Origin: a virus
Taxonomy: Duplodnaviria; Heunggongvirae; Uroviricota; Caudoviricetes
IMG/VR virus record: IMGVR_UViG_2579779007_000005
Reading direction: 5' to 3' (one strand)
Length of the DNA: 12,909 nucleotides
Shown: one piece after another, positions 1,280 to 8,066 of the stretch
Position numbering within the stretch: position 1 is the stretch's first letter
Layout of the letters: each line of letters opens with the position of its first letter
Notes under the pieces: model-generated
Told to the model about the DNA's origin: nothing
The model's input: only the letters and a program-made list of their open reading frames with translations
The model's database searches: none
Program-made: the position numbers and the translations under genes

Positions 1280-2941
1280 TCAAATCCCATTAAATAAAGC
1301 CAACCGTTCTTTGTGGCTATCGCTCATATCGAATGCAAATTCCTCATGCTCTGCCTGGAATGTGCCAAACGCCATCAGCGCCGCAACGCTCGGGTCTATC
1401 TTGTTGGATGATTTTTTCTTGTTCGGCTTGATATTGGCGTTCGCGTCACTCTGCATCACAACATTACTCATTGACCAAGCCATCACCGGATCACCACGAT
1501 GTACAATCACCTTCCGGTTAACAAAAACTTCGAACGATTTCGCCGCCGGACTGAAACGAAGGTATGTTTGCGGGAACGGCTCCACCTCAAATCCTGCACC
1601 CTGTAGCTGCGTCCTCAAGTGCGTGGCGTTCCATGTATCGAAGCCCACCAGCCTGATATTGAAATTCTCTGCATCCACCATGATGTCATCACGGATACGG
1701 TCATAATCAATGCAGTCACCCGGTGTTGTGCGTATCCAGCCCGCCTTTACCCACTGGCGATAGATGGCGCGGTTTTTATTGGCGGGGTTCTGTAGCTGAA
1801 ATTCTGGTAGATAGTGACGGGAAACCAGCATAATCTTTTTACCGACCGGGAAGGCATAGCACACGCTGGAAATATCGCTGGTTGATGATAAGTCCAGCCC
1901 CGCGTAGCACTCCTGCCCGTATAAATCCGCCTCCGCGAACGTTCCGGCGCACTCCGCCCATGCACCGTTACCCATCCACGGCGTAGCCCCCTGACACCAG
2001 ATATTGAATCGCTTGGTGAGCATTTCCACCCACTGCGACGGAATACCCCGCGCTTTCTGGATGGTTGAGGCCAGTTTTTCACGATCTACGGAAACATCGA
2101 TATTGGGATTCGCCTTTATCCACATCGCCGGATCGTCAACCTCGCTTTCATCATCCAGCTCATAAATCAGAACGAACATGGATTCGTTCACCTCTTCACC
2201 ATCCAGTATCTGGCAGCAATAGTCGTAGTGTTGTTTACAGGCTGAAACAACGTTGCTCCCCGATGTGGTGATGGCAAATAACAGCCCCTCTGGGCGTGCC
2301 CCCATTCCCAGTTCAAGCGCGGAATAAACACCGTTGTCAGGGTGCAGGTGATATTCATCCACAATGGCAAGGCTCGGGTTTGTACCTTCAATGGTTGCCG
2401 CTTTTGCTGCCAGCGGCTTTAACAGGCTGTTGGTTTTCGGGTGTATCACCTTGTGTGCCTGAATATTTACCCGCTTTCGTAACGGTCGGGATAAAAGGCA
2501 CATCTGACGCGCATCATCAAACACGATCCGCGCCTGATCACGACTCACGGCGGCGGTGTAAATATCCTGCTGCCCGTTTTCCATAACCAGAAACCAGTTA
2601 GCCAGGATAGCGGCGACCGTGGATTTGGCATTTTTTCGCGGTACTTCAATGAATGCGCTGGTGTATTTGCGCCGTCCGGTGGCCTTAACCTTAAAGCCCA
2701 GGATGCACGCAAAGGCGAACTGCTGCCACGGCTCCAGCTCAATGGGGCTACCACGCATTGCGCCTTTTACGTGCGGACACACCCTGGAAAAGGCAATAAA
2801 CCGCTCAACGACCTCCGGATCGAACGTGTAAAGGGGGTTTTCAAGGTCAGAAAAATACCGTTTAACGGCCTGTTTCAGTCGTTTACAGGCCGTAATTTTG
2901 CCGTTTTTTACGCCTTCTGCGTACTCATGCCAGGCGGTCAA
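1280..2941 (-). CDS. terL: Terminase large subunit, HK97-like (553 aa), apparently TTG-initiated
   Basis: Conserved N-terminal region WHEYAEGVKNGKITACKRL, Walker-like VPRKNAKST, and a C-terminal nuclease-like region. The most upstream in-frame start is TTG 2941-2939, preceded by GAGGA SD at a 5-nt spacer. There is no in-frame ATG/GTG before residue 63. It overlaps terS by 17 nt. Confidence 0.9.
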   Translation of the reverse strand: MTAWHEYAEGVKNGKITACKRLKQAVKRYFSDLENPLYTFDPEVVERFIAFSRVCPHVKGAMRGSPIELEPWQQFAFACILGFKVKATGRRKYTSAFIEVPRKNAKSTVAAILANWFLVMENGQQDIYTAAVSRDQARIVFDDARQMCLLSRPLRKRVNIQAHKVIHPKTNSLLKPLAAKAATIEGTNPSLAIVDEYHLHPDNGVYSALELGMGARPEGLLFAITTSGSNVVSACKQHYDYCCQILDGEEVNESMFVLIYELDDESEVDDPAMWIKANPNIDVSVDREKLASTIQKARGIPSQWVEMLTKRFNIWCQGATPWMGNGAWAECAGTFAEADLYGQECYAGLDLSSTSDISSVCYAFPVGKKIMLVSRHYLPEFQLQNPANKNRAIYRQWVKAGWIRTTPGDCIDYDRIRDDIMVDAENFNIRLVGFDTWNATHLRTQLQGAGFEVEPFPQTYLRFSPAAKSFEVFVNRKVIVHRGDPVMAWSMSNVVMQSDANANIKPNKKKSSNKIDPSVAALMAFGTFQAEHEEFAFDMSDSHKERLALFNGI

Positions 2942-3281
2942 GCTCGTCCTCTTCCTCTGTTTCCGGTGGATTTCTGCGGCGGCTTACCGGGTCAAAACCC
3001 AGCAAAGAAGCCATTTTGATCATTATTCTTTCTGCGTCAGCCTTTGCGCTCAGTGCGGGGTTTCTGCTCTCGCTGCCCTGACTGTTAACAATGCTGAACC
3101 CGCGCGTCGCAAGGTCTTCGACGGCTTTGCGGTATATGGAGTAGTTAACACAATACAGTTCCAGATTGCTCCAGTCGGCGGGGGTAAGGTCTTCCCGCCC
3201 GGAAAGCTGGCGCGATTTTTCCTTCCACTGCCTGACCGCGATTTCATCCAGGTAAGCGGGGGCTTTTGGTGGTCTTGCCAT
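2925..3281 (-). CDS. terS: Terminase small subunit (118 aa)
   Basis: The start is taken as the internal ATG 3281-3279 (MARPPKAPAYLDEIAVRQWKE...) rather than the ATG at 3422, because the upstream 47 codons read like AT-rich intergenic DNA. P27-type TerS-like N-terminus and acidic C-terminal tail (ETEEEDELDRLA). Stop TGA 2927-2925 overlaps terL. Confidence 0.75.
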   Translation of the reverse strand: MARPPKAPAYLDEIAVRQWKEKSRQLSGREDLTPADWSNLELYCVNYSIYRKAVEDLATRGFSIVNSQGSESRNPALSAKADAERIMIKMASLLGFDPVSRRRNPPETEEEDELDRLA

Positions 3282-3332
3282 GTTCTTTTTTCGTCCAATT
3301 ATTTTCAAAAAAATTACTGTGCACAAAAATTT

Positions 3333-3392
3333 GAGGGGGCGGTCGGTGTCCGGCAGGGACGGTTTCGTCCTGAAAACCACCCCCACCCCCTC
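3333..3392. other. Candidate cos/packaging-site element in the HNH-terS intergenic region
   Basis: Inverted repeat GAGGGGGCGG (3333-3342) / CCACCCCCTC (3383-3392) with one mismatch, flanking the palindrome GGACGgtttCGTCC (3357-3370). It lies 50-110 bp upstream of terS inside a 288-bp non-coding gap (3282-3569). Confidence 0.3.
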
Positions 3393-3569
3393 TGACGGCC
3401 TCACCAGCGATTGCGAAAACATTCCATGACCTCGCGGTCACGGTCGGTTAATCGCTTCGCTGTGGTGCGTTTTGTGCGCCCTGTCCTGTTGGCTTTGTGC
3501 TCTGTCTCCTGTGTCTTCCATGTGTCACGCTGCCTTATCAGTCCACGTATCAGCCTGGTTTGCTCCTGT

Positions 3570-4010
3570 TCAGTCATCATCACCATACATCCAGTCGTTA
3601 CGGTGTGCCGCCCGTTCTTCCTGCTCGCGATACATGCCCGCTTTACGGTTTGCTTTCGTGGCTGGATCTTCCCATGTCGTCTTACGGTTGTGGCACGTCT
3701 GGCACAATGCCTGGTGATTCCACTCAGGCCAGAAGAGAACATCACCGCCGCCATTGATGGGAATGATGTGATCCACCACAAGAGCTGGTGTATAAATACC
3801 CTTAGCCAGACAACGCACGCATAACGGGTTTTTGCTCAGGTACAGGGCGCGGTATTTGTCCCACTGTCGGGAATACCCACGTGCGCGGCGGTGTCCCCGT
3901 CTGGCATCCTCTGCACGCCATGCAGCCCGCCTGTGCTCTTCACACTTGCCGGACTTCACGCGCTTATTACAGCCCGGCTCAGTGCATCGCCTTAATGGTT
4001 GCCACGGCAT
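3570..4010 (-). CDS. HNH endonuclease, terminase-associated (146 aa)
   Basis: HNH/zinc-finger motifs: CVRCL...DHIIP...N...H...CQTCHNRK and N-terminal CTEPGC...C. It lies directly upstream of terS-terL, as in HK97-like cos packaging modules. Confidence 0.85.
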   Translation of the reverse strand: MPWQPLRRCTEPGCNKRVKSGKCEEHRRAAWRAEDARRGHRRARGYSRQWDKYRALYLSKNPLCVRCLAKGIYTPALVVDHIIPINGGGDVLFWPEWNHQALCQTCHNRKTTWEDPATKANRKAGMYREQEERAAHRNDWMYGDDD

Positions 4011-4312
4011 CAGTACACCCCCACATCACGATAAACCGACCAGAGCGCAGAAATAGCCATAGGCAGTTCCGAGTGCTCAACTGGTGAAACCGCTTCCCGG
4101 TTCTCGTACAGAAAAGCGATGTACATCAGGCAACCAACACGTATTGCCGGGGTAAATTCCAGGCCGTCTTCAAAACGTTTCCCGATATGCTTCTGGCAGG
4201 CTTCCAGCGCCGCATCGGTATATATTTGCAGAAGTTCAACCTCACCATAAAAATCATCATCAAGGCGAAGATGGGCCATTACTTCATTAAGCGTAATTCT
4301 GGATTCACTCAT
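4010..4312 (-). CDS. gp6-like head-tail connector/adaptor protein (100 aa)
   Basis: ATG 4312-4310 (MSESRITLNEVMAHLRLDDD...) overlaps the portal stop by 8 nt; its TGA overlaps the HNH ATG (TGATG). Size and position match phage gp6-like connectors. Confidence 0.65.
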   Translation of the reverse strand: MSESRITLNEVMAHLRLDDDFYGEVELLQIYTDAALEACQKHIGKRFEDGLEFTPAIRVGCLMYIAFLYENREAVSPVEHSELPMAISALWSVYRDVGVY

Positions 4313-5519
4313 CTTTTTCACCTTTAATTTCCACAGTCTGCTTCCATGCCTGGCTGAACTCGTCACCCCCTTCACGCGGCGGCATACCCTCACGCTCACG
4401 GGCTTCGTTCGGATTCATGATCCCGTTCTTAATCCCTTTCTCATACGTGGCATAACGTTCGGTGGGTGTGGCGCGTAATAAATCGGCTGAATCAAACTCA
4501 ACCAGATAACGGGTACCAGGTACGGGAGAAGCCACCAGCAAAGCGGCCTTGATTTGCTGTTCGAAGTTCGCCAGCCATGGGCGCATTGTCATGGTCAGAA
4601 ACGCGCGGCTTGCCTCGCTGAAATTGCTGTAGGTGCTGTTGCTGTATTCCTGCAGAAAAATAGGCGATACGTTGAACATGCGGGCGATGTCTTCAATGGA
4701 GAAGCGACGGGAGGCCAGCCATTCCGCATCCTGGTTACTCATTCCCAGTTGCTTGTAATCCATGCCCCCTTCAAGGATTGGCGTTTTTCCGGCATTTTTC
4801 GCCCCCTTGTAGCGTTCCAGAGCATCTAATGCCTGTTTACCTTTCACGCCGTCCAGCCATTCGCCTGACGTGATAATCCCTGCCGCCATCATGCCATCTT
4901 TCATAATGCTGGCTCCGTGGCGCTGTTGAGCAAGGCCAAGCCCAAGTGCCTCACGGCAAATCGTGACGGGGGAGCGCCCCAGAAAGCCATCATCCGAGGC
5001 ATAGCGGAGATGCAGAACTTCTTCCTGTAAATACGTGCGCACCGTTCCTGTATAGGGTTCGGTGATGGTATATCGGTATTTGTGTGCGCCTGTGCGTTCC
5101 GGTACAACACACCCCGGCGCATAAGGATGAAGTGATTTTGGCTGCCCGTCCCGCCCCCACTCAATAACCGCATAGGCGTTACCGTTCAGCAGGCAGTGAC
5201 GCATCATTGTGCGTTTAAACTGGTAAGGTGTCTGGCATGAATTAGGCTGCTCATTCAGCAGAATATCTACCGGGTGACTGTCCAGCCATTCCCGCGCCTC
5301 TCTGCCCTTGTCATTACGTACCAGATACAGATAACACGGCATCGTGGCCACCGCCTCAGCGATGACAGAAACCGCGTTCATCACTGCAGGCAATGATTCA
5401 GCCGTCCCGGCAGAAACATATTCTCCGGATCCGGTATTCGGTACGCCGGACAGCGCCAGAAAATCATCAATGGACAGGTTACGCTGCTCGCTTTTTTTAC
5501 GACTAAAAGGCCACCACAT
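4305..5519 (-). CDS. HK97-family portal protein (404 aa)
   Basis: ATG 5519-5517 is tightly coupled to the protease stop; the TTG at 5609 listed in the track is rejected. Size and position fit a portal. The stop overlaps the connector ATG. Confidence 0.8.
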   Translation of the reverse strand: MWWPFSRKKSEQRNLSIDDFLALSGVPNTGSGEYVSAGTAESLPAVMNAVSVIAEAVATMPCYLYLVRNDKGREAREWLDSHPVDILLNEQPNSCQTPYQFKRTMMRHCLLNGNAYAVIEWGRDGQPKSLHPYAPGCVVPERTGAHKYRYTITEPYTGTVRTYLQEEVLHLRYASDDGFLGRSPVTICREALGLGLAQQRHGASIMKDGMMAAGIITSGEWLDGVKGKQALDALERYKGAKNAGKTPILEGGMDYKQLGMSNQDAEWLASRRFSIEDIARMFNVSPIFLQEYSNSTYSNFSEASRAFLTMTMRPWLANFEQQIKAALLVASPVPGTRYLVEFDSADLLRATPTERYATYEKGIKNGIMNPNEAREREGMPPREGGDEFSQAWKQTVEIKGEKDE

Positions 5520-5520
5520 A

Positions 5521-6081
5521 TCACAACCCCGCCAGGTCAGCCCAGCGATGACGATTATTTCCTGCCGGGCGTAATTCAGGGTGCAGTGCAAACAACGAAC
5601 GGTGGGCAATCTCCACGCCGGATTCGGGATAAGCAGGCATTGACGTTATCGTGATTTCACGGAGTTCTGCAGCGGTAACAGTGCGCAGATACGGTTTTTG
5701 CGCGATATTCCACTCCTCGCATAATGCGCGAAAGCCAAAGCTCATTCCTGTAATGTCGCCACGCTCCACCAGCGTAAGCACATCTTTTCCAAGCTGGGTA
5801 TTTGGCGGTGTCAGTTCAAAACGTAACCCGGTGTTATCCTCAGTCAATACCAGAGTGCCGGATTTGGTGCGCCCCAGCAGTTGGGTATAGTCATGCTCAT
5901 ACAGGCAGCGCACATCATTACCCGCCACCAGATAGTCAGCAAAAGCCCCCGGCGTGAACTGTTCGCGGAATTCGTCCCAGATAATTTCTGAAAGGCTGTT
6001 CCAGCGAACGGCATATCCCACCAGCTTTTTATTGCTGGCGGTCAGTTCAGATGTGCGGATTTCAAAATCGGTGTTTTTCAT
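5521..6081 (-). CDS. HK97-family prohead maturation protease (186 aa)
   Basis: ATG 6081-6079 with AGGGGA SD. The N-terminal pattern ...KLVGYAVRWNSLSEI... resembles HK97 gp4-type proteases. It sits between the capsid and portal genes; its stop (5523-5521) is 1 nt from the portal ATG. Confidence 0.8.
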   Translation of the reverse strand: MKNTDFEIRTSELTASNKKLVGYAVRWNSLSEIIWDEFREQFTPGAFADYLVAGNDVRCLYEHDYTQLLGRTKSGTLVLTEDNTGLRFELTPPNTQLGKDVLTLVERGDITGMSFGFRALCEEWNIAQKPYLRTVTAAELREITITSMPAYPESGVEIAHRSLFALHPELRPAGNNRHRWADLAGL

Positions 6082-6129: not shown

Positions 6130-7275
6130 TTACTCACCAGCCTGAATTTCCAGAATCTTGATGGCGTTCGAATCCACCACACCACCGCCCAGATATTTCT
6201 GGGTATAGATGTTAATGAATCCGGGTTCGCTGAAGTCCGGACGGGTACGCGTACCGGTTTCATGGTCAACGATGAAATAACCGCGCTTAAAGTCACCTAC
6301 TGCAATCACACCGTCCGGAATAAATTCCAGATATTCAACCGGAAGCCCCAGCAGAGAATCAGGATCACCAGCCTGTAAACGATCGCGCCAGATGTAATCA
6401 CCAGTGGCATTTTTCAGTTTTTGTGCGGAGGCGGCTGTATTTGAGTTCATCACCCATACAGCTTTTTTGCGGTACTTATTGCGCAGCGTAAATTTCAGGT
6501 CAATCAGCATGTCGGCGCTGAGACTGCCAGTAACTTTTTTCGTCTGGAGCGTACCGAAAGGACGGGTTTTGTCGTTATCCGCAGTGCGCGGGAACGCCAG
6601 GAAACCTTTAGCTTTTTTCTCGCCATCACCGGAAACCAGATCCGTTTCTTCGGTATCAACGAAAGTGTCGCCAATTTCAGAAGATAACCAGCTCATAATA
6701 TCGACTTCGGAAAAATCGATAATTTCCTGAGTGGTTTTCGGGTAAGCGTAGATCGGATACAGGCGGATGCTGACTTCGTTCAGTTTCGGCGTTGCCGTCT
6801 GGTTACGTGCCGCACCTTCCTCGCCATGCTCAACCACCGCGCCACCAGCGGAAACCAGTTGCTTAAATTCATTGCTGTGAATGGTTTTAACAGTACAGAT
6901 TTTACGCATCACCGATTCATCAGAAAGCTGACGCATAATTTCTCTGTTCAGTTCCGGGATAACCGTATAACCACCATCAGCCGGGACACTGCCGGACAGG
7001 TTGCGGGTTTCCCCGGTCAGAATGTAAGAGCGCAGTTCGTCTTTGGTGATTTTCTCTTCGACGGAAACACCTGGCTGGTTACGTTCTTCATCCGCAACAG
7101 CTTCAAGACGGGAGATTTCTGTGTCGAGGGAATCGGCTTTTGCACGCAGTTCATCAAACTGTTTGCCCTCGTCATCGTTCAGGCTGCGGTTTTCACTGTC
7201 GGCTTTTTCCAGCAGGGAGCGCATCTGGTTTTTCAGGGCGTTTTTTTGCTGGCGGAGTTCGATTAATTTCTTCAT
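6130..7275 (-). CDS. HK97-fold major capsid protein with an N-terminal coiled-coil delta (scaffold) domain; 381 aa
   Basis: The N-terminus MKKLIELRQQKNALKNQMRSLLEKA...ISRLEAVADEERN is a typical helical delta domain, followed by an HK97-like body. ATG at 7275 is chosen over the in-frame TTG 7362 and ATG 7350 on homology-type grounds; the start is uncertain. Stop TAA 6132-6130. Confidence 0.85.
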   Translation of the reverse strand: MKKLIELRQQKNALKNQMRSLLEKADSENRSLNDDEGKQFDELRAKADSLDTEISRLEAVADEERNQPGVSVEEKITKDELRSYILTGETRNLSGSVPADGGYTVIPELNREIMRQLSDESVMRKICTVKTIHSNEFKQLVSAGGAVVEHGEEGAARNQTATPKLNEVSIRLYPIYAYPKTTQEIIDFSEVDIMSWLSSEIGDTFVDTEETDLVSGDGEKKAKGFLAFPRTADNDKTRPFGTLQTKKVTGSLSADMLIDLKFTLRNKYRKKAVWVMNSNTAASAQKLKNATGDYIWRDRLQAGDPDSLLGLPVEYLEFIPDGVIAVGDFKRGYFIVDHETGTRTRPDFSEPGFINIYTQKYLGGGVVDSNAIKILEIQAGE

Positions 7276-7465
7276 GAAGGTTTTCTCGTATTGGTTAAGA
7301 TTCAGGACGTGAAACCAACACGGAGGGAGCGCGCCCGACACTCCCGGCATCTCGCAGATCAACCCAGCATCGCGCAGGGGTCAGGCGGCATTGTGGCGGC
7401 TCACGTCTGAGTGCCACGCTCCAACATATACATAAAAATCAGTATGTAAACACCTGTCAGTCAGA

Positions 7466-7559: not shown

Positions 7560-8066
7560 ATGAATTTAAGCGCAATGGCATACCCTGATACTTTCATAAT
7601 TAATGGCGAATCATTCAGAGGTAAAAGAAACGCAAAAGAAAACAAGGTATTAATTCCATATACAAATGAACCGGAAGTAACTATTGGTCAACACATTATC
7701 CAGCGTGTCGGTAAAAACGAGATAAATCTAAAAATTATAGATATGAAGTTGCTTCCCAATGGAACCCTCAGACAGGGAACCAACCATCCAAATATGTTGA
7801 CTCTCTATATTGAAAATATCACGGGAAATGAACATATGACGCCAACTAAAAGTAATACATTTAACATTGGTTCAATTAGTGGTGATCAAGTGCAGATAGG
7901 TGAGCATAACCATATGCTGGTAAACATCAGCATCACTGAACTGGTTGAAAAAGTCGCTAAATCGGGGGATGTACAAGCCAAATCAGTATTAAAGCAGTTA
8001 CTGGAAAACAGTACCGTTGCCAGCATTGTTGGGGCTGGCGCAAGTGCCCTAATAGGCTTACTGTAA
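7560..8066 (+). CDS. AT-rich cargo gene of unknown function (168 aa) with a C-terminal hydrophobic Gly/Ala-rich tail; candidate accessory or defence-type effector
   Basis: ATG 7560 with AAGGA SD at a 6-nt spacer. It is the only substantial plus-strand gene in the island and is visibly more AT-rich than its neighbours. The C-terminus STVASIVGAGASALIGLL looks like a glycine-zipper membrane segment. It is bounded by its own promoter region and a terminator. Confidence 0.7.
   Translation: MNLSAMAYPDTFIINGESFRGKRNAKENKVLIPYTNEPEVTIGQHIIQRVGKNEINLKIIDMKLLPNGTLRQGTNHPNMLTLYIENITGNEHMTPTKSNTFNIGSISGDQVQIGEHNHMLVNISITELVEKVAKSGDVQAKSVLKQLLENSTVASIVGAGASALIGLL

Follow-up and report, generated by a model that had tools for sequence, protein, structure and literature searches.

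Where does a satellite that makes its own capsids keep the site at which its DNA is cut for packaging? The question is raised by a stretch of 12,909 nucleotides (nt), IMG/VR virus record IMGVR_UViG_2579779007_000005, called the window here at its full length, in which positions 3282-3569 lie between the stop codon of an HNH endonuclease gene (hnh) and the start of the small terminase gene (terS). A preliminary description of this DNA drew these limits correctly and proposed that a cos site lies between the two genes, a proposal that comparison with other loci supports well. Positions 3299-3392 are very probably the cos site of a capsid-forming phage-inducible chromosomal island (cf-PICI), of the HNH-dependent type known from P27, SfV and HK97; that its exact core is 3336-3345 is likely, though less assured. 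The observations that carry this reading are the gene order, the conservation of sequence blocks at fixed spacing, a match to the mapped or annotated cos of SfI and P27, collinearity with HK97, and a contig break at the site in virion-derived DNA of a homologue. The presence of cos at this place is expected: it is a known cos type in a known satellite family.

Conserved blocks in the gap between hnh and terS

The preliminary description took all 288 bp as non-coding, but an open reading frame (ORF) of 61 amino acids (aa) fills part of them, which leaves 119 bp (3282-3400) as true intergenic space. The gap between hnh and terS was collected from 80 IMG/VR loci, among at least 120 matches, which gave 47 distinct sequences. 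A second sample was drawn from GTDB with one genome per species and comprised 31 loci from Klebsiella, Citrobacter, Serratia, Photorhabdus, Aeromonas and others, reaching as far as the Pasteurellaceae. Mean pairwise identity over 28 species-level loci, read on the minus strand, divides the intergenic space as follows, with the identity in brackets.

3377-3392, minus strand: G block GAGGGGGTGGGGGTGG, a partial inverted copy of the core (0.72)
3367-3376, minus strand: TTTTCAGGAC, conserved flank of the G block (0.70)
3348-3366, minus strand: spacer of free sequence, about neutral, holding the right half of a palindrome (0.48)
3336-3347, minus strand: AC followed by the core CGACCGCCCC (0.83)
3336-3345, minus strand: predicted cohesive-end core CGACCGCCCC, cosN-like, from alignment with P27, SfI and HK97
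3325-3335, minus strand: CTCAAATTTTT (0.89)
3315-3324, minus strand: GTGCACAGTA, the GCAC sub-block (0.72)
3299-3314, minus strand: ATTTTTTTGAAAATAA (0.92)
3299-3335, minus strand: predicted left-end recognition region, a cosB-like TerS site, CTCAAATTTTT-GTGCACAGTA-ATTTTTTTGAAAATAA
3282-3298, minus strand: free leader and ribosome-binding region of terS (0.36)

In the same loci the first, second and third codon positions of terS have identities of 0.82, 0.85 and 0.46. The blocks are close to codon positions 1 and 2, and these non-coding sequences must therefore be under equally strong constraint, while the spacer and the leader, to judge from the same figures, drift at the synonymous rate. The 47 distinct IMG/VR sequences show the same pattern of conservation as the species set. 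Across 26 species the G-run core is invariant or nearly so, and no gap interrupts the alignment of the 75 nt that extend from G block to T run, so that the distance from G block to core is fixed (31 nt from the end of the G block). The blocks are retained even in the Pasteurellaceae, where TerS is only ~60% identical. Within the window the motif CGACCGCCCC is unique, and the tract of seven T residues lies at +23..+29 from the cut that P27 and SfI predict.

The preliminary description had pointed to dyads in the gap rather than to blocks. They exist: the inverted repeat GAGGGGGCGG (3333-3342) / CCACCCCCTC (3383-3392) is complementary at nine of ten positions, and the palindrome GGACGgtttCGTCC lies at 3357-3370. 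As stand-alone evidence of function, however, both had to be rejected, since dinucleotide shuffles of the single sequence yield at least one such inverted repeat in 18% of cases and such a palindrome in 12%. As elements of cos they fare differently from one another. Of the outer repeat, read on the plus strand, the left arm shares positions with the predicted cohesive-end core and the right arm is inside the G block, so both arms fall in conserved blocks, whereas the central palindrome is lineage-specific, its pairing being kept in only 25% of the sequence-pair cells over 26 species. The outer repeat is paired in 77% of the cells, but its covariation score was reached by 41 of 500 shuffles; the arms are complementary because the G run and the C run are each conserved, not because they covary.

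These figures bear on two alternatives. The first is that the inverted repeat and the palindrome are chance features of decaying, non-functional intergenic DNA, as their frequency in shuffles and the poor conservation of the palindrome would suggest. Yet the arms of the outer repeat lie in blocks conserved over two bacterial families at the level of codon positions 1 and 2, and the region around the hnh-terS gap is carried by 491 of 5,426 complete Escherichia coli genomes. Chance is refuted for the conserved blocks by these comparisons and holds for the inner palindrome only; for the gap as a whole it is hardly credible.

The second alternative is that the G run and the C run form, on the minus strand, the stem of an intrinsic terminator or attenuator between the head and terminase genes. 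There GAGGGGGUGG can pair with CCGCCCCCUC (with one G-U pair), followed by AAAUUUUU, the pairing is widespread over the 26 species, as said above, and a scan reported weak terminator-like sites nearby on the same strand. The loop of such a stem would be 40 nt long, however, with AAA between the stem and the T run, which is not a canonical terminator, and the scan did not report the G-run/C-run stem itself. Covariation is not clearly above that of the shuffles, Rfam gave no match for an RNA element at E<=1 on either strand, and conservation runs 35 nt past the stem into the A/T block, which has no pairing partner. The blocks that would form the stem also sit at the physical DNA ends of HK97 and at the cos sites of SfI and P27, described below. 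A terminator is a very improbable explanation of the blocks.

Several copies of the region show variation of their own. In Bisgaard taxon 46 an insertion of ~110 nt with palindromic sequence lies between the A/T block and the start of terS, which implies that a large distance from the presumed TerS site to terS is tolerated. In the copy of Shigella flexneri SFBU1023 (locus 2480-2510) a deletion runs from the spacer to about codon 6 of terS and takes out the cos core, the A/T block and the start of terS. It apparently arose between the 14-nt direct repeats GGGGGCGGTCGGTG and GGGGGCTTTTGGTG (window 3258-3271 and 3335-3348), and this island is presumably a natural, immobile copy lacking cos. A possible IHF-like motif, WATCAANNNNTTR, at +1..+13 fits the Pasteurellaceae copies (AATCAAATTTTTA) and has two mismatches in the window.

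Mapped cohesive ends and virion DNA

When the family consensus was compared by blastn with 50,697 phage records, the best matches after the family's own members were to phiP27 (E=6e-3), exactly on the feature that the depositors had named 'cos-site' (AJ298298 21806-21815), CGCCCGCCCC followed by GTCAAATTTTTAC. The order of elements in P27 is GGGGAGGGGCGGG, 31 nt ending GGGAC, CGCCCGCCCC, GTCAAATTTTTAC and terS; in the window it is GAGGGGGTGGGGGTGG, 31 nt ending GGACAC, CGACCGCCCC and CTCAAATTTTTGT, and the two cores agree at nine of ten positions. SfV (GGGGAGGGGCGGG, 31 nt, TGCCCGCCCC) and ST64B (GGGAAGGGGCGGG, 31 nt, TGCCCGCCCC), both with packaging genes of the P27 type, have the same arrangement. 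SfI provides physical mapping. Its virion DNA was run-off sequenced from both ends, and the 10 nt TGCCCGCCCC were missing relative to the prophage (PMC3636060), a gap in both reads that would be the signature of a 3' overhang. The layout common to these sites is a G block, a 31-nt spacer ending in ..GGAC or ..AC, a core YGCCCGCCCC, and (C/G)TCAAATTTTTA(C/T). The window has such a core, the TCAAATTTTTA flank (CGACCGCCCC-CTCAAATTTTTG) and a G block ~31 bp upstream.

The genes agree with the DNA. In P27, SfV, SfI and ST64B cos lies between hnh and terS, and the predicted site of the window has the HNH gene on one side and terS-terL on the other with one small ORF intervening. Phages whose cos has been mapped have homologues of the window's TerS, TerL and HNH. 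P27 L34 (HNH) belongs to phrog_144 like the window protein (38% identity) and P27 L35 (TerS) to phrog_83 (32% identity), so conservation is higher in the DNA site than in the proteins that would act on it. Beyond +13 the flanks differ, the window having GCACAGTAATTTTTTTGAAAATAA and the P27-type phages ACCCGCGAAA(T/A)T.AAA; it is in this diverged flank that the specificity of TerS is expected to reside. The window differs further from the P27-type phages in the extra small ORF between hnh and cos and in that its host element is a tail-less satellite. The Acinetobacter phage AbIPP1, which has a P27-family TerS, shows the same layout with the G block present, and a small ORF of 72 aa between hnh and the site that looks unrelated to that of the window.

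HK97 extends the comparison to a phage whose ends are known. Its record ends in ...GGGGGGGGG, 32 nt ending ATGAC, and CGCCGCCAAA, and begins with GTTTGAATTTAACGCTAACCCGATTTTTTTAGTTTTAAGG before the ATG of terS (GTTTGAATTT...GATTTTTTTAGTTTTAAGG). A profile hidden Markov model of the family, used with nhmmer on the rotated HK97 genome, gave its top match across the cos junction in the right orientation, the best of 79 kb searched. The G run of HK97 precedes the terminal 10-mer by 32 nt, compared with 31 nt in the window, P27 and SfV, and the T7 tract lies at +24..+30, compared with +23..+29. The terminal 10-mer is C-rich and preceded by GAC, with hnh upstream and terS downstream, and the gp74 HNH protein stimulates cleavage. 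The HK97 overhang is 3' and 10 nt long, and TerS binds +15..+29, a site that includes an A-tract at +24..+29 (PMC11331095); previously the same group had given the overhang as 12 nt. The T7 tract of the HK97 record overlaps this mapped TerS site. The core sequence itself, CGCCGCCAAA, differs from that of the window, and overall DNA similarity is marginal. Between the TerS of the window and gp1 of HK97 no relation was detectable (phrog_83 and phrog_5601; BLASTP E=4).

It has to be asked whether the blocks might instead be the promoter or operator of terS-terL, for example the site of a late activator, with packaging from elsewhere or by headful. In favour of this, the region immediately precedes terS and is A/T-rich, with a TTGAAA in it, and in some cf-PICI lineages hnh-terS-terL stand at the start of the operon (bioRxiv 10.1101/2022.09.08.507074). 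The TTGAAA is only 17 nt before the ATG, however, too close for a -10 element and a leader to fit between, and the sole promoter-like match is on the plus strand, the wrong one. Scans for terminators and promoters found nothing convincing on the coding strand. HNH beside a P27-family TerS and an HK97-type TerL marks cos packaging, and the core equals mapped cohesive ends. We regard a promoter or operator in place of cos as quite unlikely; a regulatory role besides cos is possible. The chance, terminator and promoter explanations jointly retain a small but not negligible share of the probability.

A cos site is also suggested by DNA from particles. Klebsiella phage vB_KppS-Ant (LR881103.1), although deposited as a phage, is the induced island of K. 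pneumoniae DSM 30104 (= ATCC 13883) and carries int, primase, capsid, portal, HNH, terS and terL. Its sequence came from particle DNA by Nextera XT and SPAdes, with no mention of re-ordering, in a paper that describes the record as a filamentous single-stranded DNA prophage (PMC8006926). Compared with the integrated island, the contig has a permuted order. It ends in ...GGTTTTCAGGAC, within TTTTCAGGAC, the flank of the G block (equivalent to window 3367-3376), and starts 22 nt before terS. Both contig ends match the chromosome exactly over 2 kb per side, and precisely 69 nt are omitted: 21 nt, the core CACCCGCCCC and 38 nt. Its two ends share no k-mer overlap, so the assembly is not circular. 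Linear molecules lose coverage over their last tens of bases in transposase libraries, and given this loss the 69-nt gap fits physical ends at the core. In the same record a 766-aa ORF at 2036-4333, directly after terL, bears a tape-measure annotation, unexpected in an element described as having no tail genes.

Klebsiella phage P12620-1 (PQ569648.1) was considered as a second virion-derived copy and set aside as a chimeric record of no use for end mapping. It is a 'complete genome' of 106.5 kb in which a cf-PICI segment of ~16 kb is fused at the ATG of terS to unrelated sequence, and it ends within the small ORF.

Against cos at this position, and against parts of the prediction, several points have to be set. 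The break in vB_KppS-Ant could be a coverage gap, for the missing 69 nt are compositionally extreme (a C run and T runs) and transposase libraries are biased. The cos ends of the window element are predicted ones. The P27 'cos-site' is a depositors' annotation, and the HK97 match is weak taken alone (E=0.071) and telling by position only. The window core departs from the family majority in having CGACC where most have CGCCC or CACCC, and at 3337 its CCCCC is replaced by CCTCC in most of its closest E. coli relatives. The T at this ninth base of the core is found in Serratia and Rahnella too, so the predicted overhang would be polymorphic there. In a phage preparation made on strain EDL933, one contig of low coverage is continuous across the site, although it may be host DNA. 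Finally, a pile-up of contig ends at the site was sought by TerS and the motif TCAAATTTTTNNGCACN5T7GAAAATAA, and none was seen in the 80 IMG/VR loci listed of at least 120 matches; these loci are mostly integrated copies from isolate genomes and uninformative on this point.

The island and the small gene beside the site

The packaging module of the window is encoded throughout on the minus strand, in the order capsid, protease, portal, connector, HNH, 61-aa ORF, 119-bp gap, terS and terL.

6130-7362, minus strand: capsid
5521-6081, minus strand: prohead protease
4305-5609, minus strand: portal
4010-4399, minus strand: head-tail connector
3570-4010, minus strand: HNH endonuclease, a packaging accessory nuclease (PF01844, E=1.7e-9; phrog_144, E=2e-45; stop codon at 3572-3570)
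3401-3586, minus strand: small conserved ORF, 61 aa from the ATG at 3586 or 58 aa from the ATG at 3577 (phrog_3173)
2925-3281, minus strand: terS, P27-family small terminase (PF05119, E=1.6e-23; phrog_83; ATG at 3281-3279)
1280-2941, minus strand: terL, HK97-type large terminase (PF03354 and PF20441)

The terL product shares 28% identity with HK97 gp2 along its entire length (E=6e-49). Upstream of the head module lie a gene for SSB and one for a D5-type primase. The integrase gene is outside the window but present in the locus of E. coli KSC9, which is 99% identical and runs from the integrase to one gene past terL, after which chromosomal hpt follows. Pfam and PHROG annotation found no tail or lysis gene in the window, and the KSC9 island has none. 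The element thus fits the definition of a cf-PICI, which asks for a lack of tail and lysis genes, a size of ~10-18 kb and the gene order int, regulation, primase/replication, capsid, protease, portal, connectors, HNH, terS and terL, the layout described for EcCIEDL933 (bioRxiv 10.1101/2022.09.08.507074). On its gene content it is a cf-PICI of the EcCIEDL933/KpCIDSM30104 family. For EcCIEDL933 and KpCIDSM30104, induction by a helper and transfer in their own small capsids with helper tails have been shown (bioRxiv 10.1101/2022.09.08.507074; 10.1101/2025.02.11.637232), and cf-PICI DNA is reported to concatemerize via cohesive cos ends (bioRxiv 10.1101/2025.02.11.637232).

Two further ORFs of the island may be noted. 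Between the capsid and SSB genes, at 7560-8066 on the plus strand, an ORF of 168 aa matches phrog_5789 (function not assigned) over its full length and has no Pfam match; its place in the KSC9 relative is taken only by a hypothetical gene of 249 nt, and it is perhaps a cargo gene. At 822-1184 on the minus strand, just past terL at the island edge, lies the gene of a DUF3892 protein (phrog_32719).

The small ORF beside the predicted cos site has the marks of a real gene. Its first ATG lies within the last hnh codons, so that it overlaps the HNH stop, and its product matches phrog_3173 (function not assigned) over the full length with E=5e-27. There are 22 database homologues, all named 'hypothetical protein', and at least 46 intact protein variants with an invariant C-terminus, ...RDRE(V/L)xECFRNR. 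PGAP calls the ORF as a coding sequence in relatives, among them strain KSC9. It has no Pfam match, and an AlphaFold2 (AF2) model shows two helices and a disordered basic linker (pLDDT 77, pTM 0.35). The gene is found in enterobacterial cf-PICIs and is absent from the Pasteurellaceae copies and from P27, SfV and ST64B. In the tentative proposal set out further below, the protein might be an added packaging specificity factor beside cos.

Recognition of this gene also settles the nature of the pyrimidine tract with reiterated CTGT/TGTG units that the preliminary description had placed at about 3430-3560. The skew is real, purines making up 65.6% of the minus strand at 3430-3560, in the top 3% of 131-nt windows over the gene block, and the reiteration is a 19-nt direct repeat with 79% identity. 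As a cis element, however, the tract falls away, because it is the complement of the 61-aa gene and owes its skew to encoding a protein rich in Lys, Arg, Glu, Thr and Gln. The local annotation is thereby corrected: a conserved gene replaces a supposed non-coding tract.

Predicted packaging and comparison with known systems

If the assignment of the blocks is correct, packaging would proceed in the following manner. After excision and replication, the P27-family TerS of the island would bind the GCAC and T7GA4TAA block just upstream of terS (3299-3324). Bound TerS would position TerL, aided by HNH, to nick on both sides of CGACCGCCCC (3336-3345), and the nicks would yield 10-nt 3'-protruding cohesive ends. 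The terS-proximal end, CTCAAATTTTT... (3335 downward), would be the first into the island-made capsid, and the next cos would bring packaging to a stop. There the G block, held exactly 31 bp from the core on its upstream side, would be the last to enter and probably has a role in termination or cleavage, cosQ-like by position. We infer the nick positions, the polarity of the overhang, the assignment of proteins to blocks and the direction of packaging.

This amounts to a base-level prediction of cos for a widespread satellite family, with a core at 3336-3345, a recognition block at 3299-3335 and a G block at 3367-3392; no base-level map of a cf-PICI cos was found in the literature searched. 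The features that are least ordinary are the phase-locking of the G block from HK97 to the cf-PICIs, the contrast between a near-identical core and a diverged TerS flank, and the presence of the 61-aa gene beside cos. The island core is nearly that of P27 and SfV and the presumed TerS flank is not, which bears both on how satellite and phage might exclude each other from packaging and on the origin of the packaging module.

A stronger proposal can be framed from these features, although we put it forward tentatively and think it on balance unlikely. Under it, cos would have a third subsite that has so far gone undescribed, the G block, which copies part of the core in inverted form and is placed at a distance of 30-32 bp upstream in cf-PICIs, P27/SfV/ST64B, AbIPP1 and HK97, and the cf-PICIs and P27/SfV phages would share near-identical cohesive ends, their packaging being separated only by the diverged TerS block at +13..+37. 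The inverted copy is exact in P27 and SfV (GGGGCGGG compared with CCCGCCCC). The G block could be a docking site for HNH or for a second TerL protomer, or a cosQ-like termination signal.

In phage lambda the order of cos elements is cosQ-cosN-cosB, that is, an element upstream that is packaged last, a nicking core, and a binding region for the small terminase beside its gene. By position the window has the same order of three elements, with its G block in the place of cosQ, but without sequence similarity. Lambda has 12-nt 5' overhangs and uses gpNu1 and IHF, with no HNH protein.

Among satellites, SaPIbov5 (phi12/phiSLT) and P4 (P2) carry a cos site copied from the helper and borrow the helper's terminase, and packaging of SaPIbov5 is HNH-dependent (as summarised in bioRxiv 10.1101/2022.09.08.507074). 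The preliminary description had supposed that the cos sequence of the present island decides whether helper terminases can package it. This does not fit a cf-PICI, which brings its own TerS, TerL and HNH and takes tails alone from the helper (bioRxiv 10.1101/2022.09.08.507074). As the island in the window encodes its own TerS, TerL, HNH and capsid, its cos would serve its own enzymes.

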